Shown: positions 13,340-58,902 of the stretch, one piece after another
How positions within the stretch are numbered: the first letter of the stretch is position 1
Layout: each line of letters starts with the position of its first letter
From: Malacoraja senta
Taxonomy: Eukaryota
Direction: 5' to 3'
Length of the DNA: 64,000 bases
Assembly (NCBI GenBank): GCA_038087875.1
Contig: CM075995.1
Location: 3,164,001-3,228,000 of the forward strand
Program-made: the position numbers and the translations under genes
The notes under the pieces: model-generated
What the model saw: the letters and a program-made list of their open reading frames with translations, nothing else
What the model was told of the DNA's origin: nothing
Databases searched by the model: none

Positions 13340-14378
13340 GGGAGGAGCCATCTTGAGGAACGGCTGCAAAACAGCAGCCGTCCGTTAATTGTACTTTTTT
13401 ACTAAGTTTTTTTAGTTTTCTTTAAGTTTTTGTTTTTATTTATTTTGCCTTTAATGTGGGGGGATCAAGGGGAAACCACTTCCTGGTCCCTACCTGGTCG
13501 GTGAGGCAGCCTTCTCTCCGGCTGCCCATTCGACCCGTCCTCGCGGCCTCGCGGCCTACCAGCGGCGTGGAGCGGCGTTTCCTGGCGGGAACCGCACAGC
13601 ACCCTCAGCTTCGGTGGCGGCACGGCGCTGGAGCGCTACTGTGCAGCGGAGCGGGCGATGCCTTGCCTGGGTCGCCGCGCTGGACCGACGCGCTGGAGCT
13701 CCGGTGAGCTGGACCGCCGAGCTCAACACCTCCGGGACTGGAGCGACCATTCGCGGGCGGCGGCGCCGACTCCAACACCGGGAGCCTTGAGCTCCAAATC
13801 GGCGCGGCCTTGTCGGCTTCAGGTACTGCGGACGCCTGCGGGAAATCGGCCGTTCCAGCCGTAGTTGCGGCCTCCGGTGAGGGATGCGGCCGTTCCAGGT
13901 GGCCCAGCTGCTGGAGGACTCTCCCGACGCCGGGGCTACATCACCCGGCGAGAACGGCCAGGATCATCGGGCCTTCGTAGAGGCAATAGCGGGGGCTTCA
14001 TTTGGCCTGACTTTTTTGGGTGAACTGGGGCTGGGGACTGGACATTGTGCCTTCCCCCACAATGGAAATCATTGTGGGGGGATGATTTTTGTATGTAATT
14101 GTTTGTAATTGTATTTGTTAGTCTGTGTTCAAGATGGCGGTCGGAGGGGAGAGTGGACGCTGGCGTTAAATTGCCGCTGCTCTCTCCTCAAATTGTGCTT
14201 CTGATTTTCTTTTTTTTGTGTTTTTGGAAGGAATTCTGTCCCTGATTTATGTATTGTTCTTTATAACCTATTTTTTTTTAAATTCTGATTATATGTTTTC
14301 TATAAATCTCTGTATGGTGTCCTTGAGACCTCGGTATAAGGCGCCCGTAAATAAAATCCATTATTATTATTATTATTA
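13340..14378 (+). mobile_element. Non-autonomous GC-rich retroposon with L2-type 3' tail
   Basis: 5' GCCATCTTG plus hairpin ACGGCTGC-AAAACA-GCAGCCGT, T-rich tract, CpG-rich body; 3' CCTTGAGACCTCGGTATAAGGCGCCCGTAAATAAA(TTA)n. Confidence 0.6.
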
Positions 14379-18286: not shown

Positions 18287-18462
18287 AATGGTTGGGGGGA
18301 GGGACTCAAATAGAGAATGCTATTAGACAGTGTGTGAGGCAGGAGGCAGAGAAGGAAAGCACTCAGACCCAACATGTAGGGGGAAAGAAGAAAACAATAA
18401 TAAACAGAGAATAAGAGGTGGTGGGGTTCTTAAATGGGTGAGCAGAGAAACAGAGGGGTGTA

Positions 18463-21399
18463 AAATGCGGGCGGAAGCAATAGGTAGCAAGGTGAAAGGT
18501 AAAAGTGGCAGGCAGACAAATCCAGGACAAAAATCAAAAAGAGCCACTTTTCAACATAATTGTATAAGGGGTAAGAGCGTTGTAAAAACAAGTCTGAAGG
18601 CTTTGTGTCTCAATGCAAGGAGCATTCGTAATAAGGTGGATGAGTTGAACGTGCAGATAGCAATTAATGATTATGATATAGTTGGGATCACGGAGACATG
18701 GCTCCAAGGTGACCAAGGCTGGGAGCTGAACATCCAGGGATATTCAATATTCAGGAGGGATAGAGAGAAAGGAAAAGGAGGTGGGGTGGCGTTGCTGGTT
18801 AGAGAGGAGATTAACGCAGTGGAAAGGAAGGACATTAGCTTGGAGGATGTGGAATCGGTATGGGTAGAGCTGCGAAACACTAAGGGGCAGAAAACGCTGG
18901 TGGGCGTTGTGTACAGGCCACCTAGCAGTAGTAGTGAAGTTGGGGATGGCATCAAACAGGAAATTAGAAATGCATGCAACAAAGGCAAAACAGTTATAAT
19001 GGGTGACTTCAATCTACATATAGATTGGGTGAATCAAATTGGCAGGGGTGCTGAGGAAGAGGATTTCTTGGAATGTATGAGGGATAGTTATCTAAACCAA
19101 CATGTAGAGGAACCAACGAGAGAGCAGGCTATTCTAGACTGGGTATTGAGTAATGAGGAAGGGTTAGTTAGCAGACTCGTTGTGCGTGCCCCCTTGGGCA
19201 AGAGTGATCATAATATGGTTGAGTTCTTCATTAGGATGGAGAGTGACATTGTTAATTCAGAAACAACGGTTCTGAACTTAAAGAAAGGTAACTTTGAGGG
19301 TATGAGACATGAATTGGCCAAGATTGACTGGCAATTAGTTCTAAAAGGGTTGACGGTGGATATGCAATGGAAGGCATTTAAAGACTGCATGGATGAACTA
19401 CAAAAATTGTTCATCCCAGTTTGGCAAAAGAATAAATCAAGGAAGGTAGTGCATCCGTGGATAACAAGGGAAATCAGGGATAGTATCAAAGCAAAAGATG
19501 ATGCGTACAAATTAGCCAGAAAAAGCAGCATACCAGAGGACTGGGAGAAATTCAGAGACCAGCAGAGGAGGACAAAGGGCTTAATTAGGAAAGGGAAAAT
19601 AGATTATGAAAGGAAACTGGCAGGGAACATAAAAACTGACTGCAAAAGTTTTTATAGATATGTGAAGAGAAAGAGATTAGTTAAATCAAATGTAGGTCCC
19701 TTGCAGTCAGAAACAGGTGAATTGATCATGGGGAACAAGGATATGGCAGACCAATTGAATAACTACTTTGGTTCCGTCTTCACTAAGGAAGACATAAATA
19801 ATCTGCCGGAAATAGCAGGGGCCGCGGGTCAAAGGAGATGGAGGAACTGAGTGAAATCCAGGTTAGTCGGAAGTGGTGTTGGGTAAATTGAATGGATTAA
19901 AGGCCGATAAATCACCAGGGCCAGATAGGCTGCATCCCAGAGTACTTAAGGAAGTAGCTCCAGAAATAGTGGATGCATTAGTGATAATTTTTCAAAACTC
20001 TTTAGATTCTGGAGTAGTTCCTGAGGATTGGAGGGTAGCAAACGTAACCCCACTTTTTAAGAAGGGAGGGAGAGAGAAAACGGGGAATTACAGACCAGTT
20101 AGTCTAACATCGGTAGTGGGGAAACTGCTAGAGTCAGTTATTAAAGATGGGATAGCAGCACATTTGGAAAGTGGTGAAATCATTGGACAAAGTCAGCATG
20201 GATTTACGAAAGGTAAATCGTGTCTGACGAATCTTATAGAATTTTTCGAGGATGTAACTAGTAGAGTGGATAGGGGAGAACCAGTGGATGTGTTGTATCT
20301 GGACTTTCAGAAGGCTTTCGACAAGGTACCACATAAGAGATTAGGATACAAACTTAAATCACACGGTATTGGGGGTTCAGTATTGATGTGGATAGAGAAC
20401 TGGCTGGCAAACAGGAAGCAAAGAGTAGGAGTAAACGGGTCCTTTTCACAATGGCAGGCAGTGACTAGTGGGGTACCACAAGGCTCAGTGCTGGGACCCC
20501 AGCTATTTACAATTTATATTAATGATCTGGACGAGGGAATTGAAAGCAACATCTCCAAGTTTGCGGATGACACTAAGCTGGGGGGCAGTGTTAGCTGTGA
20601 GGAGGATGCTAGGAGACTGCAAGGTGACTTGGATAGGCTGGGTGAGTGGGCAAATGTTTGGCAGATGCAGTATAATGTGGATAAATGTGAGGTTATCCAC
20701 TTTGGTAGCAAAAACGGGAAGGCAGAGTATTATCTAAATGGTGGCCGATTAGGAAATGGGGAGATGCAGTGAGACCTGGGTGTCATGGTACACCAGTCAT
20801 TGAAAGTAGGCATGCAGGTGCAGCAGGCAGTGAAGAAAGCGAATGGTATGTTGGCCTTCATAGCAAGAGGATTTGAGTATAGGAGCAGTGAGGTTCTACT
20901 GCAGTTGTACAGGGTCTTGGTGAGACCACACCTGGAGTATTGCGTACAGTTTTGGTCTCCAAATCTGAGGAAGGACATTATAGCCATAGAGGGAGTGCAG
21001 AGAAGGTTCACCAGACTGATTCCTGGGATGTCAGGACTTTCATATGAAGAAAGACTGGATAGACTTGGCTTATACTCGCTAGAATTTAGGAGATTGAGAG
21101 GGGATCTTATAGAAACGTACAAGATTCTTATGGGGTTGGACAGGCTAGATGCAGGAAGATTGTTCCCGATGTTGGGGAAGTCCAGGACAAGGGGTCACAG
21201 CTTAAGGATAAGGGGAAAATCCTTTAAGACCGAGATGAGGAAAAACTTTTTCACACAGAGAGTGGTGAATCTCTGGAACTCTCTGCCACAGAGGGTAGTT
21301 GAGGCCAGTTCATTGGCTATATTTAAGAGGCAATTAGATGTGGCCCTTGTGGCTAAAGGGATCAGGGGGTATGGAGAGAAGGCAGGTACGGGATACTGA
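18463..21399 (+). pseudogene. CR1 ORF2 AP-endonuclease/reverse transcriptase, disrupted
   Basis: APE motifs LNARSI, GITETW, YRPP, MGDFN, SDH; RT motifs YLDFQKAFDKV, GVPQGSVLGP, FADDTK; frameshift near 19820-19870 and TGA at 20770-20772 (CGA in the 57-kb copy). Confidence 0.93.
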
Positions 21400-22229
21400 G
21401 TTGGATGATCAGCCATGATCGTATTGAATGGCGGTGCAGGCTCGAAGGGCCGAATGGCCTACTCCTGCACCTAATTTCTATGTATCTATGTATCTATGTA
21501 TTGGCCAAACGGGGGCAGGAAGGACTAATGTAGATGGGACATGTTGGGTCGAATGGCCTGTTTCCGCACTGTATCTCTAAAGTCTAAAGTAAAGACTAAA
21601 AGATGGAATCAAGGTTTGTGGAGACGAAGAAAGAAATAACTGCAGATGGTGGACACAAAGTGCTGGAGTAGCTCAGCAAGTCAGGCAGCATCTCTGGAGA
21701 ACATGAATAGACGACTTTTCTGGTCGCGACCTTCTTCATGTTCTAACCACGCCTAACCATGTTCTCCAGAGATGCTGCCTGACCTGCTGGGTTACTCCAA
21801 CGCCTTGTGTCCCTTTGTGGAGATGAGTTCAGTGAGGCAGGAAGAAGGGTCACCACCCGAAATATCGTTAATCCATTTTATCCAAAGATGTTGCCTGACT
21901 CGCTGGGTTACTCCAGCACTTTGTGTCCTTTTGTGGAGACGAGTTCAGTGAGGCAGGAAGAAGGGTCCCGACCCGAAACGTCACCTATCCACGTTCCCCA
22001 GAGATGCTGCCTGACCTGCTGACTTACTCCAGCATTTTGGTCTTTCCTTGGTTCTCAATGGCCACCTCCTGTACCTATTTTCTATGTTTCTATGTTTCTA
22101 TGCACATGCCCCAGAAATCCTCAACTCATCATCGTTGGTTTGATCGGATGGTAGATGAGGCTGGTAAGTAGGTTCTGGCATTGTAGGTCAGACTGCCTGT
22201 GCCCATGTTACCCTGACCTCTGAGAACCA

Positions 22230-24784: not shown

Positions 24785-25160
24785 ATAAGGTCACAAGTGA
24801 TAGGAGTAGAATTAGGCCATTCGGCCCATCAAGTCTACTCTGCCATTCAATCATGGCCGATCTATCTCTCCCTCCTGTCCCCATTCTCCTGCCTTCTCCC
24901 ATAACCTCTGACACCTGTACTGATCAAGAATCTATCAATCTGTGCCTTAAAAATATCAATTGACTTGGCCTTCTGTGGCAAAGAAGTCCACAGATTCACC
25001 ACCCTCTGATTAAAGACATTTCTCCTCATCTCCTTCCTAAAATAATGTCCTTTAATTCTGAGGCTGTGAACTCTGGTCCTGGACTCTCCCACTGGTGGAA
25101 ACATCCTCTCCACATCCACTCAATCCAAGCCTTTCACGATTCTGTATGTTTCAATGAGGT
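24785..25160 (-). mobile_element. CR1-like 3' fragment
   Basis: ORF 24862-25119 (-): MFPPVGESRTRVHSLRIKG...QRVVNLW. Confidence 0.8.
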
Positions 25161-25595
25161 GCGCGGCACCTTCGGAGTATTATTGCTGCCATCAAGCTTA
25201 CGCCTGAGGAACAGCATCCACTTCCATCACGGCTCAAGGATGCACTGGAGCCCCAGTGGGGAGAGATTTCTTCCAGCCACTAGAGAGAGGGAGAGAGAGA
25301 GAGAGAGAGCATTGCAGTGCAAAATCATCCATTCTGTCAGTCCGAGCGTTGAATACATCCTCCTCGCCCCTGACCCTGTCAGCTGCAGGATCGAGGAATA
25401 TTTGGCGATCGCCGGCTACAGCAGTGCTGGTCTGGACTGCAGTGGGGGAGAGGAGATGGGTGGGGGAGGGTGGGTGAAGCACCGTGGATCTAGGTGTGTG
25501 TGTCTCCTTTTTTGCTGGTAAAGGATGAGAACAGACTCTCTCCGTTTCATTTAATTCTGTGGGGACAGCTTGCTTTTCTTCGCCCAGTTACAAGG

Positions 25596-26224
25596 TGCTA
25601 TACGAGAATTTTGCCCGAACAGTCTGTGACTCATAGCGCTGTATTTAAAGCCAATAGTGCTGCAGCCGTCAGTTCTTTGTTTAAATTCCCACACGCCAAG
25701 CCGACAGTGCTCTGTTTAAACCTTTGCGCGCCAAACCGGCAGCACTGTGTGTATTACTTTAACGCGCCAAGTCTGTGTGTATTGATTTGCGTGCCGAGTC
25801 TCTAGCGCTGTGTATTGCTTTACACGCCAGTCTGCGGCTGATAGCGCTTTGTTCCCAAAGGGGAGGGGTTGCTGGGATGTAGTCTCCTGCCATTAGTTAT
25901 AGTTTGCATTTGGGAGCGGCGCTATTGGCCAGGTCATTTAAACGTCTGATGCCTTACCTGTATAAAGGCAGGCGCCAGTAAGCCCGAAGTTAGTTTATGT
26001 ACAAGAGGGGTTCACCGACGGGCTGAGTTGCGATCAGTTCCATGGACGGAGGCAGAGAGAGAGAGAGAGGGAGAGAGAGAGAGGTGTGCTGCTGTAAACC
26101 GGACCTCGCGCAGTCCAAGACAAGTATTGTTTTTGTTCTTTCTTGCCAATAAATCTGATTTGTAACTAAACAGAGCCTTTTTCTGTTCCAATAGTCAGAT
26201 CCTTGAACCTGTTCCCTTGTAACA
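25596..26224 (+). repeat. 5' long terminal repeat
   Basis: TG(C/T)TA...TAACA termini; U3-like short direct repeats (about 25630-25840), ATTGG at 25924, TATAAA at 25961, AATAAA at 26148; followed 2 nt later by a PBS. Confidence 0.8.
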
Positions 26225-26226
26225 AT

Positions 26227-26244
26227 TGGCGTAGTCGGCAGGAT
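26227..26244 (+). promoter_or_regulatory. Primer-binding site complementary to the 3' end of tRNA-Ser
   Basis: TGGCGTAGTCGGCAGGAT is the 18-nt reverse complement of ATCCTGCCGACTACGCCA (vertebrate tRNA-Ser 3' end). Confidence 0.88.
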
Positions 26245-26263
26245 CTGATGAATAGAATAGAAA

Positions 26264-27291
26264 ATGTTTGGTAAAAAGATATAGCAAACGAGATGGCGCT
26301 GTTGCAGGCCAAGCTCCACCACAACAAGCTGCTGCCCTTGGCGCGGGGGAGCCCACAGCAGACCGTGCTGCAGGCAGGACCAAGAGCCTTGAGTCTTCAA
26401 GCTTCTTTAGATTAGTTTAGTTTAGAGATACAGCACGGAAAAAGGCCCTTTGGCCCACCGTGTCCGCACCAACCAGCGATCCACACACATTAACACTATC
26501 CTACACCCACTAGAGATGATTTATTTTTTTACATTTACCAAGCCAATTAACCTACAAACCTGTACGTCTTTGGAGCGTGGGAGGAAATCGAAGATCTCGG
26601 AGGAAATCCACACAGGTCACCAGGAGAACATACAAACTCCATACAGACAGCACCCGTAATCGGGATTGAACCCGGGACTTCGGCGCTGCATTCGCTGTAA
26701 GGCAGCAACTCTACCGCTGCGCCACCGTGACCGCCCCACCGTGACTGCCCCTCCTCTAATGCTTTTAACGGGTCACGAGGGAGAAATTTATTGTTGTAAA
26801 TTGCACGTATGGATTAACACTGGCATCTGCAGGATTTGGCCGACTCGTATTGTTTCGGAGTGTAAATGGCGACTGCGATAATTATGCTATAATGGAAGGA
26901 CAAGGTGGAGCAGTGATGGAATTGCATTATAACACAGATGGCACACATCTTTTTCCAGCATCAACAGACAAAACTGTGGGATATTGAAATGGGTGAAAGA
27001 ATCAAGAGACTTAAAGGTCACACATCCTTTGTGAATTCATGTTATCCAGCCCGACGGGGTCTGTACAAGAAGCGACGACTAAACTGTGAAGCTATGGGAC
27101 ATTCGGAAGAAAGCTGCAATCCATATGTTTCAAAACAGGTACCAAGTACTGGCAGCAACGTTTAATGACACAAGCGATCAGATTATCTCTGGTGGTATTG
27201 ACGACGGCATTAAGGTTTGGGACCTCCGACAAAACAAGTTAATTTGTACCATGCGTGGTCATGCAGACTCAGTGACTGGTTTGACCCTGAG
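26264..27291 (+). pseudogene. SNRNP40: Processed (intronless) pseudogene of U5 snRNP 40-kDa WD40 protein, 3'-truncated, frameshifted, split by a SINE
   Basis: Consecutive segments LQAGPRALSLQA | LMLLTGHEGEIYCCK, GERIKRLKGHTSFVNSCYPARRG, KLWDIRKKAAIHMFQNRYQVLAATFNDTSDQIISGGIDDGIKVWDLRQNKLICTMRGHADSVTGLTLS; no introns. Confidence 0.92.
26408..26740 (-). mobile_element. tRNA-derived SINE inserted in the SNRNP40 pseudogene
   Basis: Complete SINE reverse complement between the SLQA and LMLL codons. Confidence 0.9.
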
Positions 27292-27495
27292 TGGAGTAAA
27301 AGAGAACGTCACCAACCTCGCGGACCGCATCCAGGAAGCCGTAGAGAAGAGTTGAAGGGTCGGAGAACAGAAGCACGACTACAATCCCTCGGGGTGGGGG
27401 GGGAGGTGGGCAACAGTGGCAAACTGGGGGATGGCCATAGGGACAGTCTTGTCAGCCATAATATTACGACATTGCATGTGCGGATTGGCATGATG
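27292..27495 (+). pseudogene. Retroviral env transmembrane-subunit-like remnant
   Basis: Reads GVKENVTNLADRIQEAVEKS*RVGEQKHDYNPSGWGGRWATVANWGMAIGTVLSAIILRHCMCG: heptad-like segment, Trp-rich membrane-proximal region and hydrophobic anchor, lying just before the PPT. Confidence 0.55.
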
Positions 27496-27519
27496 ACCGC
27501 GTGGACTTTACTCCAGCAT

Positions 27520-27625
27520 GTGGGCCGGATGTAAGGCGGTAACACCTGTCGGCCGGATGTAAGGCGGTAACACCTGCGGGCCGGATGTAACGAGGTGACG
27601 CCCGCGGGCCAGATGTGACGGTAAC
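27520..27625. repeat. ~28-bp tandem repeat (GGCCGGATGTAAGGCGGTAACACCTG), about 4 copies, upstream of the PPT
   Basis: Directly visible. Confidence 0.85.
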
Positions 27626-29019
27626 CAGACTGTTCAAAGGGTGGAATGTTATATGAGAACTATGGTCTCTTCACCTCAGTGCTTTTAAGACAGTTCATGA
27701 ATCTACAGGGAGGATACTTAACACAGGACAGGTATCAATATTCAGGTGGAATGCAAGGACAGAATGCAAGGTATACAGTCAATGACAAGAACATTAATAT
27801 CATTGATGCACAGAAGGATCTCGGAGTCCAAGTTCGTAGCTCACCTATTACTATCGAAATGTTTAAAGGAATTCGGCAGGTACATGGATAGTGTAGGATG
27901 GAACTGCAGATGCTGGTTTAACTGAAGATAGACACAAAGTAACTCAGTAACTCAGTGGGACAGGCAGCATCTCTGGAGAGTAGGAATGGGTGACGTTTCG
28001 GGTCGAGACTGTTTTTCAGACTCAAGAAGCACATGAATAGGACAGGTTTGGAGGGATAAGGGCCAAATGCAGGCAAGTGGGGCGAGTATAGATAGGGCAA
28101 GTTGGTCGGTGTGGGCAAGTTGGGCCGAAGGGCCGAATTCCACACTGTATCACTCTGTGACTGAAGGTGGAAAAACAAGTAGATAGGGTGGTTAAGAAGG
28201 CCCAGAGTGTGAACGATGATTTCTCTAATTTCAACTCCTGCGGTCCCTCTGCCAGCCCCCCCCCTCCCACTCTCCCCTCACTCCCCCACCCTCGTCATCC
28301 TTCTAGTTCACTGTTTACATCCTTGTATCCTTCTCATCAGCACACTTCCCCAGCCAACATTGGGCCATGGACCATTATGGACACCCTTCCAGAGGTCATC
28401 TGTTGCCGACCCTGATTTGTTCTAGCCTTTCCTCCCCCCACCCATGCCCCCGCCCCCCCCTACCCCCTCCACTCCCACCTTTTTCTTTCAGTCTGTAGAT
28501 GGGTTTCGAAGCAAAATGCCACCCATTCATTCTCTCCAGAGATGCTGACTGCCCCGCTGAGTTACTCCGGCATTTTGTGTCTATCTTTGGTGCAACCATC
28601 ATCTGCAGTTCCTTCCTACAAAAGGTGTACAGTATGCTTGCTTTCATTGGGGGTGGGGGGAAGGGGGGTGGGAGGGGAAAGGAGGGGGGGAAAGTGGAGC
28701 ACCTTCCTGCCTGCTGCGTTCCACTGTTGGAGATGCGAGGAAGTCTAAGCCACTGGGACAAACCTGAGACCACCAGTGCCACCATGTGGTCAAGAGCGGG
28801 CCTCCAGGCAGAAGGCCTCTGCAGCTAGAGCCTCGATGAGGACTGAGGAGCCCACACGCAGAGGCAAAGACTGAGCTGCCAGGATAAGCCTGAGACTGCC
28901 ATCACCCCCCTCTCACTTCTCCGTTAGAGACCAGGAACTGAGTTGATGGGATAAACCTGATATTGCCAGTACCACCATACATGCATTCTGATGATGAGGT
29001 ACAGCCCCCTCATTTGGTA

Positions 29020-33434: not shown

Positions 33435-34362
33435 GCTTGTTCCATACATCCACCATCCTTTGTGTGAAAAAGTTACCCCTCGGATTCCTATTAAATCTTT
33501 TCCCTTCACCTTGAACCTATGTCCCCCGGTCCTCTATTCCCCTACTCGGGGCAAGAGACTCTGCATCTACCCGATCTATTCCTCTCATGATTTTGTATAC
33601 CTCAATAAGATCACCCCTCATCCTCCTGCACTCCATGGAATAGAGACCCCAGCCTACTCAACCTCTCCCCTTTAGCTCACACCCTCTAGTCCTGGTAACC
33701 TCCTCGTAAATCTTTTCTGAACCCTTTCAAGTTTGACAATATCTTTCCTATAACATGGTGCCCAGAACTGAACACAATATTCTAAATGTGGTCTCACCAA
33801 CGTCTTATACAACTGCAACATGACCTCCCAACTTCTATACTCAATACTCTGACTGTCAATGCCTTCTATGTTCTGTTGTGCTGAAGCAAAGCAAGAATTT
33901 CATTGTCCTATCAGGGACACATGACAATAAACTCACTTGAAGTTGAACTTGAACTGACTGTTGAAGGCCAAAGTGCCAAAAGCCTTTTTGACCACCTTAT
34001 CTACCTGCGACTCCACCTTCAAGGAACCATGCACCTGTACTCCTAGATCCTTCTGCTCTACAACACTACCCAGAGGCCTACCATTTACTGTGTAGGTGCT
34101 GCTCTTGTTCGACATCCCAAAATGCAACACCTCATACTTCTCTGTATTAAATTCCATCAACCATTCCTCCTCCCACCTGGCCAATCGATCCAGATCCTGC
34201 TGCAATCGTTCACAACCATCTTCACTATCTGCAAAACCACTCACTTTTGTATCATCAGCAAACTTGCTAATCTTGCCAATCTTACCCTGTATGTTCTCAT
34301 CCAAATCATTGATGTAGATGACAAACAGGAACGGGCCCAGCACCGAACCCTGAGGCACACCA
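33435..34362 (-). mobile_element. CR1-like LINE RT fragment with a small Rex-type tail inserted at about 33857-33955
   Basis: ORF 33933-34403 (-): SGVPQGSVLGP...FADDTK...KDLGVQVHGSLK. Confidence 0.88.
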
Positions 34363-35227
34363 CTTGGTTTCTGTTGTACACGGACTGTCTCACTCGGTTT
34401 CACGTGGCCGTGGAGGAAATTGTTCAGGGAACTGTCAGTGTACTTAAATTAGTCATGGAGTTATACAGGCCCACACCGGCTAACTTGTCCCATCTACACC
34501 AGTCCCACCTGCCCATGTTTGTCCCCTATCCTTCCAAACCCGTCCTATCCATGTACCTGTCTAACTGTTTCTTAAACCTTCTTCAGCCTCAACTACCTCC
34601 TCTGGCAACTTGTTCCATACACACAACTTTAGTGTGAAAAAATTACCTCTCAGATTCCTATTAAATTGTTTCCCCTTCACCTTAAACCAAACCTGTCCTA
34701 ACCATGTGCCTGTCCAAAATGTGCCTTAAATGTTTCGATAGTAACTGTCTCATCTACCTCGTCCAGCAGCTCATTCTATATACCCACCGCTCTTTGCATG
34801 AAAATTTTACCCCTCGGGTTCCTATTCAATCTTTTCCCCTTCACCTTAAACCTATGTCCTCTGGTCCTCGATTCCCCTACTCTGGGCAACAGACAACCGT
34901 GCATCTACCTGATCTATTCCTCTCATGATTTTATACACCTCTATAAGATCACCCCCTCATCCTCCTGCACACCGAGGAATATTGTCCCTGCCTACTCCAC
35001 CTCTCCCCATAGCTCAGACCTTGGCGTCCTGGCAACCACTGCCCGGGCAGGCTACCCAGCACGGTTAACCTGGGGAGTTACTTTGCTTCAAGATGCTGCT
35101 GCCTCCGATGTCTGGGTTTGCAATGAATTGGAAAGGATTAGTTCTTCCACAAAGCCATCCACCGCAAGTGAAACTGCTCAATGATATCAGTCTGAGGAAG
35201 GGTCTCGACCCGAAACGTCACCCATTC

Positions 35228-35990
35228 AATAGACAATAGACAATAGACAATAGACAATAGACAATAGGTGTAGGAGTAGGACATTCAGCCCTTCGAGCCA
35301 GCACCACCATTCAATGTGATCATGGCTGATCATCCTCAATCAGTACCCCGTTCCTGCCTTCTCCCCATATCCCCTGACTCCGCTATTTTTCAGAACCCTA
35401 TCTAGCTCTCTCTTGAAAGCATCCAGAGAACCTGCCTCCACCGCCCTCTGAGGCAGAGAATTCCACAGACTCACCACTCTCTGTGAGAAAAAGTGTTTCC
35501 TCGTCTCCGTTCTAAATGGCTTACTCCTTATTCTTAAACTGTGGCCCCTGGTTCTGGACTCCCCCAACATCGGGAACATGTTTCCTGCCTCTAGCGTGTC
35601 CAAACCCTTAACCATCTTATATGTTTCAATGAGATATCCTCTCATCCTTCTAAACTCCAGAGTGTACAAGCCCATCTGCTCCATTCTCTCAGCATATGAC
35701 AATCCCGCCATCCCGGGAATTAACCTTGTAAACCTACGCTGCTCTCCCTCAATAGCAAGAATATCCTTCCTCAAATTAGGGGACCAAAACTGCACACAAT
35801 ACTCCAGGTGTGGTCTCACTAGGGCTCTGTACAACTGCAGAAGGACCTCTTTGCTTCTATATTCGATTCCTCTTGTTATAAAGGCCAACATGCCATTTGC
35901 TTTCTTCACTGCCTGCTGTACCTGCATGCTTACTTTCATAGACTGATGAACAAGGACCCCCAGATCCCGTTGTACTTCCCCTTTTCCCAA
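35228..35990 (-). mobile_element. CR1 LINE 3' fragment
   Basis: ORF 35340-36017 (-) encodes the RT C-terminus; (CAATAGA)n tail. Confidence 0.92.
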
Positions 35991-36514
35991 CTTTCCCAAT
36001 TCCTTCTCTCCAGACACAAAATAATGGGGTCACTCAATGGGACAAGCGACGAAGGAAGAAGGAATGGGTGCTTTGACCAGTTTCCTATGTGATGGATGGT
36101 CAGGACTTTGTGGAAGCATGAATCCTTTCCCATTCATTGCGAAGTCAGACATCCCTATCTATCTGAGATGATATCAAATATCTATCTAAGTGCTTATTTA
36201 TAGTGATACGTACTGAACTGTGTACCGAAATGTATTTCACTGTACCTCGGTACATGTGATAAATAAATACCATACGTCCTTGTAAATCTTCTCTGTCCCC
36301 CATTCTAGTGCTGAGGGTAGATCCTTGATCAGGCACCGGCAGAATGGCAGCCTCAGTGAATCAAGGGCAAGTCGCACCCAGGCCGCTCCCTCGTCTCCCC
36401 TCTCCCATCAGGCAAAAGGTATAGAAGTGTGAAAACGAACACCACCAGATTCAGGGACAGTTTCTTCCACGCTGCGATCAGGCAACTGAATCATCCTACC
36501 ACAACCAGAGAGCA

Positions 36515-37647
36515 TCCACTACAAACCTACCGACTCCCATGGCTATCTGGACTACACTTCTTCCCACCCTGCTTCCTGTAAGGACTCCATCCCCCACTCC
36601 CAATTCCTCCATCTACGCCGCATCTGCTCCCAAGATGAGGCGTTCCACACCAGGGCATCTGAAATGTCCTCATTCTTCAGGGAACGGGGGTTCCCCTCCT
36701 CCACCATAGATGAGGCTCGCACCAGGGTCTCTGCCATACCCCGCAACACTGCTCTCTCTCCCCATCCCCCCACTCACAACAAGGGCAGAGTCCCCCTAGT
36801 CCTCACCTTTCACCCCACCAGCCGTCACATACAACAAGTGATCCTCCGTCAGTTTCGCCACCTCCAACGTGACCCCACCACTCGCCACATCTTCCCATCT
36901 CCCCCCATGTCTGCCTTCCGCAAAGACCGCTCCCTCTGTAACTCCCTTGTCAATTCTTCCCTTCCCTCCCATACCACCCCCTCCCCTGGTACTTTCCCTT
37001 GCAACCGCAAGAGATGCAACACTTGTCCCTTCACCTCCCCCTCCACTCCATTCAAGGACCCAAGCAGTCGTTCCAGGTGCGACAGAGGTTCACCTGCATC
37101 TCCTCCAACCTCATCTATTGCATTCGCTGCTCTAGATGCCAGCTGATCTACATCGGTGAGACCAAGCGGAGGCTTGGCGATCGTTTCGCCGAACACCTCC
37201 GGTCGGTCCGCAATAACCAACCTGAACTCCCGGTGGCTCAGCACTTCAACTCCCCCTCCCATTCCGTATCTGACCTCTCTGTCCTGGGTCTCCTCCATGG
37301 CCACAGCGAGCAACACTGTAAATTGGAGGAAATGCACCTCATATTCCGCTTGGGCAGTCTACATCCTGGGGGTTTGAACATTGAATTCTCCCAATTCTGC
37401 TAGCCCTTGCTATCCCCTCCCCTTCATCAGCCATCTGGTTGTCTCCTCCCCTCCCCCAGCCCTCAGGCTCCTCCTCCGCCTTTTTCCTTTTTTCCTTTCT
37501 TCTCCCCACCCCCTATCAGTCTGAAGAAGGGTTTCGGCCCGAAACGTTACATATTTCCTTCGCTCCATAGATGCTGCTGCACCCGCTGAGTTTCTCCAGC
37601 ATTTTTGTGTACCTTCGATTTTCCAGCATCTGCAGTTCCTTCTTTAA
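36515..37647 (+). mobile_element. Penelope-like element, 5'-truncated (thumb/linker, GIY-YIG, terminal repeat)
   Basis: ORFs 36664-37146 and 36999-37403 (one frameshift); near-identical to 51670-52806. Confidence 0.92.
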
Positions 37648-37720
37648 CAGCAGTCCTGAACTAGTATCTATCTCTTTCATGACCCTCGGACTATCCTTGA
37701 AGGGACTTTGCTGGCTTTAG

Positions 37721-38368
37721 ACATAGACATAGACATAGAAAATAGGTGCAGGAGGCCATTCAGCCCTTCGAGCCAGCACCGCCATTCATTGTGATCATGG
37801 CAGATCGTCCCCTATCAATAACCCGTGCCTGCCTTCTCCCCATATCCCGTGACTCCACTAGCCCCTAGAGCTCTATCGAACTATCTCTTAAATCCATCCA
37901 GTGATTTGGCCTCCACTGCCCTCTGTGGCAGGGAATTCCATAAATTCACAACTCTCTGGGTGAATTTTTTTTTCTCACCTCAGTCTTAAATGAAACCTCC
38001 CTTTATTCTAAGACTGTGGCCCCTGGTTCTGGACTCGCCCCACATTGGGAACATTTTTCCTGCATCTAGCTTGTCCAGTCCTTTTATAATTTTATATGTT
38101 TCTATAAGAACCCCCCTCATCCTTCTAAACTCCAGTGAATACAAGCCTAGTCTTTTCAATCTTTCCTCATATGACGGTCCCGCCATCCCAGGGATCAATC
38201 TCGTGAACCTACGCTGCACTGCCTCAATCACAAAGATGTCCTTCCTCAAATTAGGAGACCAAAACTGTACACAATACTCCAGATGTGGTCTCACCAGAGT
38301 CCTATACAACTGCAGAAGAACCTCTTTCCTCCTGTACTGAAATCCTCTTGTTACGAAGGCCAACATGG
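37721..38368 (-). mobile_element. CR1 LINE 3' fragment
   Basis: ORF 37986-38366 (-) encodes the RT C-terminus; (ACATAG)n tail. Confidence 0.9.
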
Positions 38369-38411
38369 CCAGCTTTACCTTGCATTAAACATTTTCCCTT
38401 ATCTGTACACC

Positions 38412-49584: not shown

Positions 49585-51279
49585 AATTAGGAAAAAATGA
49601 GTTAAGACCAAAGTTGGACCCTTGAAAAGAGGAAAAAATCAGTTAAGACCAAAGTTGGACCCTTGAAGACTGAGAAGGGTGAATTTATTATGGGGGACAA
49701 GGAAATGGCAGATGAGTTGAACAGGTACTTTGGATCCGTCTTCACTAAGGAAGACACAAACAACCTTCCTGATGTACTAGTGGCCAGAGGATCTGGGGTG
49801 ATGGGGGAACTGAAAGAAATCCACATTAGTCAGGAAATGGTGTTGTGTAGACTGATGGGACTGAAGGCTGATAAATCCCCAGGGCCTGATGGTCTGCATC
49901 CCAGGGTACTTAAGGAAGTAGCTCGAGAAATCGTGGATGCATTGGTGATAATTTTCCAATGTTCTATAGATTCAGGATCAGTTCCTGTGGATTGGAGGGT
50001 AGCTAATGTTATCCCACTTTTTAAGAAAAGCGGGAGAGAGAAAACTGGGAATTATAGACCAGTTAGCCTGACATTGGTGGTGGGGATGATGCCCGAGTCA
50101 ATCATAAAAGATGAAATAGCAGCAAATTTGGATAGCAGTAACAGGATCGGTCCGAGTCAGCATGGATTTACGAAGGGGAAATCATGCTTGACTAATCTTC
50201 TGGAATTTTTTGAGGATGTAACTAGAAAAATGGACATGGGAGCGCCAGTGGATATAGTGTACCTGGACTTTCAGAAAGCATTCGATAAGGTCCTACATAG
50301 GAGATTAGTGGGCAAAATGAGGGCACATGGTATTGGGGGTAGAGTGCTGACATGGATTCACAATATATATTAATGATTTAGATGAAGGGTTTAAACGTAA
50401 CATTAGCAAATTTGCAGATGACACAAGGTGGCAGTGTGAATTGTGAGGAGGATGCTATGAGAATGCAGGGTGACTTGCACAGGTTGGGTGAGTGGGCAGA
50501 TGCATGGCAGATGCAGTTTAATGTGGATAAATGTGAGGTTATCCACTTTGGTGGCAAAAACAGGAAGGCAGATTATTATCTAAACGGTGTCAAGTTGGGA
50601 AAAGGGGAAGTACAACAAGATCTGGGGGTCCTTGTTCATCAGTCAATGAAAGTAAGCATGCAGGTACAGCAGGCAGTGAAGAAAGCGAATGGCATGTTGG
50701 CCTTCATAACAAGAGGAGTTGAGTATATGAGCAAAGAGGTCCTTCTGCAGTTGTACAAGGCCCTAGTGAGACCACACCTGGAGTATTGTGTGCAGTTTTG
50801 GTCTCCAAATTTGAGGAAGGACATTCTTGCAATTGAGGGAGTGCAGCGTAGGTTCACAAGGGTAATTCCCGGGATGGTGGGACTGTCATATGCTGGGAGA
50901 ATGGAGCGGCACTGGAATTTAGAAGGATGAGAGGGGATCTTATTGAAACATATAAGATTATTAAGGGTTTGGACACGCTAGAGGCAGGAAACCTGTTCCT
51001 GATGTTGGGGGAGTCCAGAACCAGGGGCCACAGTTTAAGAATAAGGGGTAAGCCATTTATAACAGAGACGAGGAAACACTTCTTCACACAGAGAGTTGTG
51101 AGTCTGTGGAATTCTCTGACTCAGAGGGCGGTGGAGGAAAGAAAGAGCTAGATAGGGCTCTTTAAGATAGGGGGATAGGGGGAGAAGGCAGGAACGGGGT
51201 ACTAATTGTGGATGATCAGCCATGATCACATTGAATGGCGGTGCTGGCTCGAAGGGCCGAATGGCCTACTCCTGCGCCT
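49585..51279 (+). mobile_element. CR1 LINE, 5'-truncated, with internal deletions
   Basis: ORFs 49663-50373, 50382-50930 and 50927-51151 encode RT pieces; tail remainder at about 52808-52830. Confidence 0.92.
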
Positions 51280-55290: not shown

Positions 55291-57407
55291 ATGCCAGTTC
55301 GCCCCCTCCATGAGGAGGATTATTTTATGGGCAGCAAGATTCAGATGACGAATCATATGAGGACCAGAGCCCAATAACAGAGCCTAAAGGACCAGGTCTG
55401 GCACAAAATAAAATTTGCCGTTCCCAGACTATCAGGGGAACCATTGGGAGATAAATTAACAATGACAATAAATTACTTGCTCTCCCATCAGCTCCAGGTA
55501 CTGACCATGGATAAGACTGTCAAAAAATATAAACCCGCAGAATTGCGCACTGCTAGCAGTCCCAGTGGTGAATAATGTAATATGGGGCTATCTGGGCATT
55601 GCAGTACGCGCACAATAAATGAAATTACAGGGGGTGTTGAAATTGCTGGGGTCAGGCATTACGGCTTTGGCCAGAGGCTTGGATGGAGAGCACGTGTCTG
55701 CATCACAACAAGGTTGCCTTAGCACTCATGTGTAGTGCGCACTTTGAAATAAACTGTATTTGTAAAAATGCTATAAGACCTAACATACACCCTAAGTTTG
55801 CGGGGCTCTGTAAAACATCTAATATTCAATTGCCTAATCTGCTTTTTGGAGAGAATCTAGCCAAAAGGGTAAAAGACCTGAATGAAGAAGTTAAAACCAT
55901 GGGGATGATGAAACCACCGGTGATGGCAGATCAATTCAAAGGCAGTTTCCCTACCGACGAGTGGTGACTAGGGCCAGTGAAGGATCAAATCGGTCTTTCC
56001 TATATATGCGTTAATGGCGCACTGCTCTTGGGGCACGTGGAGGTTACAGTATTCCCACTAAGAGAACAATTGCCATCGGCAAACCCCGAGGTGGGTGGGT
56101 CTGGTCCTGTAAGAGACATATTAATTTTTCACACTTACAAGATTACAATTCTTCCTAAAAGAATGGCAATCTGATGCATTTATACTGTACAGTATTGTGG
56201 GGTTTAGAATTAAATTCTACCCATATTTGGATCCGCCTACTCGACATATTTCAAACTGGACACGTATTTTCTCAAAAGAAGAGAATATGCAGATTCAGGC
56301 AGAACTTGAAATATTGTGTAAAAAAGGGTAATTGAGAAGTCAGTTCACCAACACCACCAATTTGTGTCAAGTATTTTCTTAGAGCAAAAAAGGATGTTGG
56401 GTGTAGAATTATTCTAGATCTGACAAGTCTTAACCCTTTTGTACAGTACAAAAAACATTTTTAAATGGAGACATTTGCCAATGCTATACAGCTAATTTCA
56501 AGAAAATACTATATGGCTAGCATAGATCTTCAAGATGCATATTACTGAGTGGCTGTGCATGGTAATGATCAAAGATATTTAAAATTTAGCTGGATGAGTC
56601 AATTATGGCAATATAAAGCATTGCCTAATGGTTTAACCTCAGCTCTGAGACTATTTACCAAATTGTTAAAAACCAATCTTAGCACTACTAAGAGCTCAGT
56701 GCCATTTGGTAATGGCCTATTTGGATATATTCTGATTGTGGGAGACACTCAGGCTACAACAGAAGCATCAGTGTCAAGAATCAAGCTCACTTTCGAGAGG
56801 CTGGGATTTATTATCCATTCAGATAATTCCAAATTATTACCAAACACAGTAATTGATTACTTGGGTTTTACTATTAATTCAGAACACATGGTAGTGACTC
56901 CGCCCAAGGATAAAAGCTGCAGTTAATTGAAGGTTGTATTAAGCTCATTACACAGCACCAACCCTCAATTAGGCAGGTAGCAAGCTTGTTTGGCAAACTA
57001 ATTGCTTAATTTCCGGCTGTACAGTTTGAACCGCTGCATTATCAGCATTTACAGCAAGCATAGGTACAGGCATTGAGGATACATTTAGGGCATTTGAAAT
57101 ATTTGTTATTACTGAAATACTTTGGTGGATCATGAGTGTCTCATATGCTTCCAGAGAGATTCTGGTTGAAACACCTTCCATTATTCTACAGACTGATTTA
57201 AGTGCTCTCGGTTGGGGCACTACTAATACTATTTCCAGCTGTGGAGGTAGATGGAATGTGGAGAAAGTACCTTTGATTCAAGAACTAGGGATGATTTACT
57301 TAGAGCTTTTAGGAACATTTTATGGGCCTATAGCTTATTGCTCTAATATGCAAAATTTGCATGTTCAGGTACAGATTGACAAAACTACGGAATAGTAACG
57401 TATGTTA

Positions 57408-58902
57408 CTTTAGATTCTGGAGTAGTTCCTGAGGATTGGAGGGTAGCAAACGTAACCCCACTTTTTAAGAAGGGAGGGAGAGAGAAAACGGGGATTTACA
57501 GACCAGTTAGTCTAACATCGGTAGTGGGGAAACTGCTAGAGTCAGTTATTAAAGATGGGATAGCAGCACATTTGGAAAGTGGTGAAATCATTGGACAAAG
57601 TCAGCATGGATTTACGAAAGGTAAATCGTGTCTGACGAATCTTATAGAATTTTTCGAGGATGTAACTAGTAGAGTGGATAGGGGAGAACCAGTGGATGTG
57701 TTGTATCTGGACTTTCAGAAGGCTTTCGACAAGGTACCACATAAGAGATTAGGATACAAACTTAAATCACACGGTATTGGGGGTTCAGTATTGATGTGGA
57801 TAGAGAACTGGCTGGCAAACAGGAAGCAAAGAGTAGGAGTAAACGGGTCCTTTTCACAATGGCAGGCAGTGACTAGTGGGGTACCGCAAGGCTCAGTGCT
57901 GGGACCCCAGCTATTTACAATTTATATTAATGATCTGGACGAGGGAATTGAAAGCAACATCTCCAAGTTTGCCGATGACACTAAGCTGGGGGGCAGTGTT
58001 AGCTGTGAGGAGGATGCTAGGAGACTGCAAGGTGACTTGGATAGGCTGGGTGAGTGGGCAAATGTTTGGCAGATGCAGTATAATGTGGATAAATGTGAGG
58101 TTATCCACTTTGGTGGCAAAAACGGGAAGGCAGACTATTATCTAAATGGTGGCCAATTAGGAAATGGGGAGATGCAGCGAGACCTGGGTGTAATGGTACA
58201 CCAGTCATTGAAAGTAGGCATGCAGGTGCAGCAGGCAGTGAAGAAAGCGAATGGTATGTTGGCCTTCATAGCAAGAGGATTTGAGTATAGGGGCAGGGAG
58301 GTTCTACTGCAGTTGTACAGAGTCTTGGTGAGACCAAACCTGGAGTATTGCGTACAGTTTTGGTCTCCAAATCTGAGGAAGGACATTATAGCCATAGACG
58401 GAGTGCAAAGAAGGTTCACCAGACTGATTCCTGGGATGTCAGGACTTTCATATGAAGAAAGACTGGATAGACTTGGCTTATACTCGCTAGAATTTAGGAG
58501 ATTGAGATGGGATCTTAAAGAAACGTACAAAATTCTTATGGGGTTGGACAGGCTAGATGCAGGAAGATTGTTCCCGATGTTGGGGAAGTCCAGGACAAGG
58601 GGTCACAGCTTAAGGATAAGGGGCAAATCCTTTAAGACCGAGATGAGGAAAAACTTTTTCACACAGAGAGTGGTGAATCTCTGGAACTCTCTGCCACAGA
58701 GGGTAGTTGAGGCCAGTTCATTGGCTATATTTAAGAGGGAGTTAGATGTGGCCCTTGTGGCTAAAGGGATCAGGGGGTATGGAGAGAAGGCAGGTACGGG
58801 ATACTGAGTTGGATGATCAGCCATGATCATATTGAATGGCGGTGCAGGCTCGAAGGGCCGAATGGCCTACTCCTGCACCTATTTTCTATGTATCTATGTA
58901 TC
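57408..58902 (+). mobile_element. CR1 LINE 3' half inserted in the DIRS RNase H region
   Basis: Uninterrupted RT ORF 57524-58807; nearly identical to about 20000-21500; flanked by TATGTTA (57401-57407 / 58903-58909). Confidence 0.95.

Follow-up and report, generated by a model that had tools for sequence, protein, structure and literature searches.

In acutely transforming retroviruses a viral gene is joined in frame to sequence from a host mRNA, and the resulting genome is defective and depends on a helper. Rous sarcoma virus (RSV) and HZ4-FeSV are named as viruses of this kind by Chong et al. 2014 (PMC4299795), whose available text also describes two crocodilian endogenous retroviruses (ERVs) with host genes on board, nectin3 in CrocERV31 and KIT-ligand in CrocERV29. 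Retrocopies of animals mediated by long terminal repeat (LTR) elements and formed by a double template switch were reported by Tan et al. 2016 (PMC5131818), who cite HERV-K/FAM8A1 and maize Bs1; among the species given in the available part of that paper there is no cartilaginous fish. The XtERV-S elements of Xenopus were described by Yedavalli et al. 2021 (PMC8278194), where the accessible Table 2 lists integrase fingers of the form HX4HX28CX2C against HX3HX32 for murine leukaemia virus (MLV) and HX3HX29 for foamy virus. The subject of the present analysis is an element in the skate Malacoraja senta, at 25596..27659 of a 64,000-nucleotide stretch of contig CM075995.1 (positions 3,164,001 to 3,228,000; the whole stretch is termed the window), in which part of a spliced SNRNP40 mRNA lies within the remains of an ERV.

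Taken as a whole, it is highly probable that an ERV captured the host mRNA by template switching within the transmembrane (TM) part of env, that the product was mobilised in trans in a burst, and that SNRNP40 travelled as a neutral passenger. Captures of host mRNA are already known from other animals, and the skate element is a clean new example rather than a new kind. It is, nevertheless, an unusually complete fossil of a capture within one genome, with the host gene, a broken parent, all of the three junctions, two successive forms of the element and some sixty dated copies, in a host group (cartilaginous fishes) that lies outside the capture surveys cited, as far as their available text extends.

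Structure of the element and its SNRNP40 cargo

The cargo was identified as SNRNP40 by its best match in the PDB (E 4e-45) and by its highest protein identity (90%, to skate SNRNP40). The host gene lies at G000:C3857:165912-188086 and comprises ten exons, with exon 5 located by its splice-acceptor pattern and all introns GT-AG; its protein is identical to the SNRNP40 of the skate Amblyraja radiata at 345 of 348 amino acids. The best DNA match for exon 5, at C10:25442745, was rejected as the host gene, since examination of the 80 kb around it showed another copy of the element. Relative to the host gene, the element carries nt 28 to ~699 of the coding sequence (CDS), from codon 10 in exon 1 to the middle of exon 6 (~670 nt), and the five introns of that interval (11664, 2368, 606, 741 and 2752 nt) are missing, which bears out an earlier description of the cargo as intronless. 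Exon junctions 2-5 are free of insertions in 31-40 of 43 copies. At exon junction 1 the window copy reads across, and the family-wide alignment is uninformative, with a shared 3-nt deletion adjoining.

The cDNA is truncated at both ends, carries no poly(A) and has no duplication at its ends. The first-pass annotation of the window, made from the sequence alone, had placed the truncation at the 3′ end rather than the 5′ end; the former part stands, and the 5′ end proved to be cut as well, at CDS nt 28 (codon 10). Its statement that there is no poly(A) tail extends to the family, in that no run of 8 A was present at the 3′ junction in the 44 loci where this could be read (50 examined). A processed pseudogene made by a long interspersed element (LINE) was rejected, as the 3′ end, the poly(A) and a target duplication at the ends of the insert are all missing. 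The window copy is laid out as follows.

25596..26224, + strand: 5′ LTR of 629 nt with TG..CA ends, TATAAA at 25961 and AATAAA at 26148; paired in sister copies
26227..26244, + strand: primer binding site (PBS) for tRNA-Ser(AGA/CGA)
26245..26281, + strand: leader and first gag codons, with ATG at 26264 and the stop of that frame at 26282-26284, past the deletion junction; like the leader of the parent proviruses L099, L100 and L101
26276..26297, + strand: 22-nt piece of env TM 5′ of the cDNA, starting in a 7-nt word shared by gag and env and ending in an 8-nt word shared by env and SNRNP40, GAGATGGC (26290-26297)
26290..26409, + strand: first part of the SNRNP40 cDNA (CDS nt 28-144), exon 1 from codon 10, exon 1/2 junction near 26376
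26410..26750, − strand: repeat of 341 nt resembling a tRNA-derived short interspersed element (SINE), a later insertion private to the window copy; repeat families D13, D16 and D18
26751..27284, + strand: second part of the SNRNP40 cDNA (CDS nt 143 to ~699), rest of exon 2, exons 3-5 and part of exon 6, junctions near 26850, 26944, 27091 and 27214
27285..27515, + strand: env TM remnant, C-heptad and membrane-spanning part; an in-frame internal deletion of 150 nt took out the immunosuppressive domain (ISD)
27516..27635, + strand: 3′ untranslated stretch with three to four direct repeats of ~28 nt, also in parent copies
27636..27646, + strand: polypurine tract (PPT)
27647..27659, + strand: 3′ LTR stub, first 13 nt, 11/13 identical to the 5′ LTR start

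On re-reading of the sequence, the positions previously assigned to the LTR, its TATAAA and AATAAA, the PBS, the PPT and the 13-nt stub were all borne out. The PBS had been called an exact match to tRNA-Ser, and it is indeed the exact complement of the 3′ ends of the tRNA-Ser(AGA) and tRNA-Ser(CGA) genes of the same genome, plus CCA; three of the four pattern loci were given to ARAGORN and all three were called Ser. Two further sites, L119:1501-1560 and L120:1501-1560, contain tRNA-Ser 3′ halves ending in CCA inside unrelated DNA. These were rejected as tRNA genes, since ARAGORN and Rfam find no tRNA in them, and represent retrocopied fragments. The ATG at 26264 is presumably the gag start, judging from the reading that follows the same ATG in the parents. 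The coding sequence had been placed about 20 nt past the PBS, and the ATG of the cDNA in fact lies 48 nt past it.

Both LTRs of one element flank the cDNA in sister copies, which keep whole 3′ LTRs, while the window copy has lost most of its 3′ LTR and the remainder was found nowhere else within the window. The cDNA of the window copy, which carries five frameshifts and one stop over its whole length, had been taken as continuous; the repeat at 26410-26750 was overlooked. This repeat is absent from the sister copies, where the cDNA halves are directly joined, and we take it to resemble the HE1 SINE of sharks and rays. Another copy, L079 (G000:C2:106386501-106392500), carries at cDNA nt 144 an element of 229 nt with terminal inverted repeats and a TAA-like target, presumably a Harbinger-like miniature inverted-repeat transposable element. 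Two independent insertions thus occupy one site.

The ~28-nt repeat ahead of the PPT (27516-27625 in the window; also L096, L100 and L105) is present in two to seven copies depending on the element. Elsewhere in the window there are LINE-like copies that are 77-100% alike (18327-21400, 34000-38400, 49600-51200 and 57380-58800), many SINE copies and simple repeats, and a single ARAGORN call of tRNA-Arg (13831-13913), probably SINE-derived. A search of window positions 25000-28500 against Rfam gave no matches.

Dispersal, age and evolution of the family

A search with the LTR gave 811 candidate matches, the best 40 of which were scored, and the LTR occurs elsewhere both paired and solo, in keeping with its earlier designation. 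The cDNA search gave 77 candidates; the best 40, which were scored, are 81-88% identical over 398-541 of 541 nt, self match aside. With LTR and cDNA matches in such numbers, the resemblance is not due to chance. When the cDNA and junction searches were pooled, the chimeric element was found at 60 or more distinct loci on 20 contigs, a lower bound. Fifty loci were seen in context, and in nearly all an LTR and leader precede the cDNA, which starts at nt 28, and an env remnant and a second LTR follow it; later insertions are frequent. The idea of a defective ERV that had captured a gene and spread as a non-autonomous family is upheld by this common layout and by target duplications that differ from copy to copy. 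For the latter, 17 chimeric elements had both outer ends called and 16 of these were not duplicates; a 5-bp duplication matching in at least four of five bases was present in 12 of the 16 (exact in four), all of them different, where chance would give 0.016 each by our arithmetic.

Some of the copies are segmental duplicates. Four pairs are near-identical and have common flanks or structure, and two further pairs sit on shared long branches. Discounting these four and two leaves at least 54 independent insertions. The same pairs are what could be offered for the notion that a single capture locus was multiplied by segmental duplication throughout, which is nonetheless extremely improbable given the differing 5-bp duplications at the LTR ends, the 20 contigs and the star-like tree; the distinct target duplications refute it for most copies.

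The two LTRs of an element differ by a median Kimura two-parameter distance of 0.113 (0.065-0.172). In a tree of 38 cDNA copies, which is star-like, the median terminal branch is 0.060, and the terminal branches total 2.17 versus 0.16 for the internal ones. The agreement of the LTR-LTR distance with the cDNA terminal branches, together with the shape of the tree, points to one old burst, roughly 30-120 million years ago at an assumed 0.5-2e-9 substitutions per site per year. The 150-nt in-frame env deletion is present at 39 of the 50 loci, five have the longer form and six were unreadable; the long-env copies hold a low position in the cDNA tree, though without support. Pattern searches returned 28 matches to the chimeric 3′ junction versus four dispersed matches to the parent junction, the stringency of the two patterns being not exactly equal. 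A further 35 parent-junction matches all belong to one amplified rearranged piece.

The element is also represented outside M. senta. P0066, a protein of Leucoraja erinacea given by NCBI as a 'low quality' SNRNP40-like protein, opens at the same codon as the element, closes with its env tail and agrees with it at 12 of 13 element-specific residues, and the same single capture is therefore present in that species. Copies of the element can thus mislead annotation, as in this case, where one is presented as an SNRNP40-like gene; shared insertions, in turn, are usable as presence/absence markers in skate phylogeny. P0066 was alone in having the chimeric tail among six candidate proteins of 148-473 aa, a sample with little bearing on other species. 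No RNA run with the element was among the sequencing runs listed, and 21 runs, from several organisms, share only 0.07-0.13 of its words, which is no evidence on distribution.

Selection on the cargo was studied in 43 copies compared with the host gene (the 50 less four duplicates and three with <100 nt of cDNA; median identity 90%). Among the changes not shared between copies, 1128 are nonsynonymous or create a stop and 388 are synonymous, which puts the synonymous fraction at 0.256 versus the 0.235 expected under neutrality from the observed mutation spectrum. Near-full copies (33) have a mean of 3.9 disablements each, and three of the 33 have a cDNA free of them, against 0.6 expected under a Poisson distribution or, by our arithmetic, ~1.7 with overdispersion allowed. 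A frame of >260 codons is open in four of the 38 copies with a scoreable start, and the ratios there are neutral (e.g. 29N/7S and 25N/9S). Purifying selection on the copies, or on those with an open frame, was rejected on these ratios. The family copies evolve neutrally, and SNRNP40 is a passenger with no sign of selection found.

The differences common to most copies, 15 nonsynonymous and 18 synonymous, bear on the time before the burst. In 13 of the 15 the host and another skate agree, so these changes are element-derived. About four synonymous changes on a neutral stem, added to ~13 on the host over the same time, account for the 18 (our arithmetic). It is conceivable, although we regard it as improbable, that an in-frame SNRNP40-env fusion was useful to the element while it was spreading, either as a truncated propeller on the env membrane anchor or through an open frame that stabilised the RNA, and that this lineage outgrew its parent. 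For the propeller, a truncated U5 WD40 protein on a membrane anchor could possibly have acted as a dominant negative on splicing and so favoured unspliced viral RNA. No stop or frameshift is common to the majority of copies, and the frame is kept by the 3′ junction, by the 150-nt env deletion and by the 3-nt deletion, which is common to 30 copies; the excess of chimeric over dispersed parent junctions and the four long open frames agree with such a use. However, with only ~2 disablements expected on the stem, their complete absence would arise by chance with a probability near 0.15; junctions placed at like codons also tend to fall in frame. The 13 element-derived changes lie at positions conserved between the host and another skate, and the shared differences fit a neutral stem once synonymous change on the host is counted. 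The open-frame copies themselves have neutral ratios, and short non-autonomous elements are often commoner than their parents in any case, according to the available text of Tan et al. (PMC5131818). If true, a retrovirus would have captured a core spliceosome gene to the benefit of the element.

The parent retrovirus and a proposed route of capture

Loci with the same LTR and no cDNA carry a longer env. The first-pass annotation had called for a search for an intact parent; a full-length provirus, L101 (C8:9193001-9203000), was found, though it is broken by numerous stops and frameshifts and by a LINE-like insertion. Profile matches in L101 include reverse transcriptase (RT; E 1e-5), RNase H, integrase and TLV_coat. 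Parent env copies match TLV_coat at E 3e-4 and 6e-3, and an ISD with a decayed CX6CC can be read in L063, L061 and L101, as in a gamma-type TM. The window remnant itself gave no Pfam match in three frames; its earlier description as env-TM-like holds because its DNA matches the longer parent copies, which do match TLV_coat.

The parent family has a tRNA-Ser PBS, TGT..ACA LTR ends and 5-bp target duplications, and an integrase finger HX4HX28CX2C was read in L102. On these sequence features and those of the TM, the parent would be a class III ERV-S/ERV-L-like pol with a gamma-type env. Against a firm class III call, the RT piece matches MLV in the PDB (E 5e-10) better than foamy RT (1e-6); the integrase piece has a weak match to foamy. 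The nearest database protein, at 50% identity, is an unnamed pol that has a dUTPase domain, and no dUTPase match was obtained in the broken copies L101 and L102.

Other deleted forms of the parent, without host cargo, were seen once each in L099 (G000:C7:54598501-54608500), L100 and L103. Their types are a leader joined to env after ~0.9 kb, gag-pro followed by env, and the LTR start joined to env. The amplified rearranged piece consists of an env stretch and its inverted copy ~1 kb away, with parts of the LTR, and the 35 matches are to one variant. It is located at the end of G000:C18 and on the small contigs C146, C293, C1558, C2993, C3074, C3572, C3853, C4545, C5161, C6035 and others; one example, L104, has a flank in common with L102. 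This piece looks like a large duplicated unit rather than a product of transposition.

Comparison with the parent env placed the capture site. The parent sequence is uninterrupted across it and encodes one heptad stretch, ..EEIANE(M/T)ADALSGVKE... In the element, the 22 nt preceding the cDNA are env and not host, and end in GAGATGGC, an exact 8-nt word common to env and host exon 1. After the cDNA, env resumes at CCCTGAGTGG; at this point A-L-S-G is encoded by host and env alike, and 7-8 of 12 bases match. For a random pair of sites, an 8-nt word has a chance of 8e-5 and a match in 8 of 12 bases one of 0.003. The capture site lacks only ~5 nt of env. A separate junction, 22 nt upstream, marks the large gag-to-env loss; there the first gag codons are joined to env at a shared 7-nt word, AAGAAAT, and gag, pol and the surface subunit (SU) are gone. 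Since env flanks the cDNA on both sides, uptake took place inside env TM and was not the substitution for gag-pol that had been proposed from the window alone; gag, pol and SU went by a separate deletion. A capture can, then, be almost pure insertion into env, and viral genes need not be replaced.

The following route would account for these junctions. A class III (ERV-S/ERV-L-like) ERV with a gamma-type env may have co-packaged spliced SNRNP40 mRNA. Within env TM the reverse transcriptase would have switched from the viral RNA to the mRNA, entering it in the middle of exon 6 and copying ~670 nt as far as codon 10. It would then have resumed on the viral RNA ~5 nt upstream of its exit point, with short shared words guiding both ends. 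Another jump, at the 7-nt shared word, would have removed the stretch from gag codon 6 to env TM. The product would be a 2.2-kb element with LTRs, PBS, leader and PPT, which the proteins of the parent family could have copied in trans to at least 54 independent sites in one old burst. Early loss of another 150 nt of env and then neutral decay, with SNRNP40 as a passenger, would have followed. Both the capture and the gag-to-env deletion could stem from a single round of reverse transcription. Switching in a particle and mobilisation in trans are the two steps that we infer from the junctions and the family.

A LINE reverse transcriptase, or break repair guided by microhomology, might instead have put the cDNA into an integrated provirus that later became the master of the family, a course that would differ in the capture step alone. 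LINEs and SINEs abound in the genome, and the 3′-half tRNA retrocopies show that LINE machinery copies other RNAs in it; the microhomology at both cDNA ends fits break repair too. Such an origin seems unlikely, since there is no poly(A) and no duplication but a small deletion instead, the 3′ end lies in mid exon 6, and shared words lie at both ends, which is the pattern that Tan et al. used to exclude insertion into pre-existing elements, as set out in the available text (PMC5131818). The earlier note had named a target duplication or poly(A) belonging to the SNRNP40 segment as the mark of an ordinary retrocopy inserted into an existing ERV, and neither was found.

Note that several observations weigh against template-switch capture and a single dated burst. 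The junctions alone fit either a template switch in a particle or microhomology-guided repair of a provirus with cDNA, and the similarity of the 3′ junction to the present host sequence is weak (7-8 of 12). All 30 loci with the gag/env deletion junction run on into the cDNA (29 in register, one slipped by a base), so none of them has the deletion without the cDNA, and the genome search gave no match for a cDNA in env with intact upstream env. With no intermediates, the capture and the deletion cannot be ordered. Four of the 16 elements tested lack a clear target duplication (two of these have miscalled ends), and the alignments of LTR pairs are partial (145-674 columns). Template-switch capture within env TM is still the reading preferred here.

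Comparison with known systems

Literature searches, with most subscription papers, supplements and Repbase/Dfam outside their scope, returned no published description of an ERV element carrying SNRNP40. The parallel with acutely transforming retroviruses, drawn in the first-pass annotation, holds for the mechanism and fails for selection on the captured gene: unlike theirs, the gene carried in the skate encodes a spliceosomal WD40 protein, shows no sign of selection and is not an oncogene.

The skate parent resembles XtERV-S, as described in the available text (PMC8278194), in its tRNA-Ser PBS, TGT..ACA ends, 5-bp duplication, HX4HX28CX2C finger and gamma-type TM with an ISD, and both have many deleted copies that keep the PBS, leader, gag start and PPT. 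Unlike XtERV-S, for which that text describes no captured host gene, the skate parent is old and broken, and the likeness is one of sequence features.

CrocERV29 and CrocERV31, on the available account (PMC4299795), share with the skate element an old vertebrate ERV lineage, a host mRNA at or near env and several copies. The crocodilian elements, however, retain pol and carry complete captured ORFs (6 and 9 copies) on which purifying selection acts, whereas the skate element has no gag-pol and its cargo is neutral, truncated at either end and joined to env TM. A selected captured gene of the CrocERV29/31 type was rejected for the skate on the neutral ratios and the mean number of disablements per near-full copy.

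The closest likeness is to the LTR-mediated retrocopies, in so far as the accessible text describes them (PMC5131818): a partial spliced mRNA between parts of an LTR element, short words in common at each junction, neither poly(A) nor duplication, and secondary non-autonomous spread with common switch points. In those retrocopies part of the element ORF is replaced, while in the skate ~5 nt of env were, and at least 54 copies contrast with the 1-5 given there for Bs1. The switch proposed for the skate is the double one of Tan et al., with the peculiarity that it amounts almost to pure insertion. The signals required in cis (PBS, PPT and LTRs) are present and enzymes are not, and L101, with the same LTR, is the partner. 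By the features tested, the skate element behaves as an LTR-mediated retrocopy from which a non-autonomous family arose.

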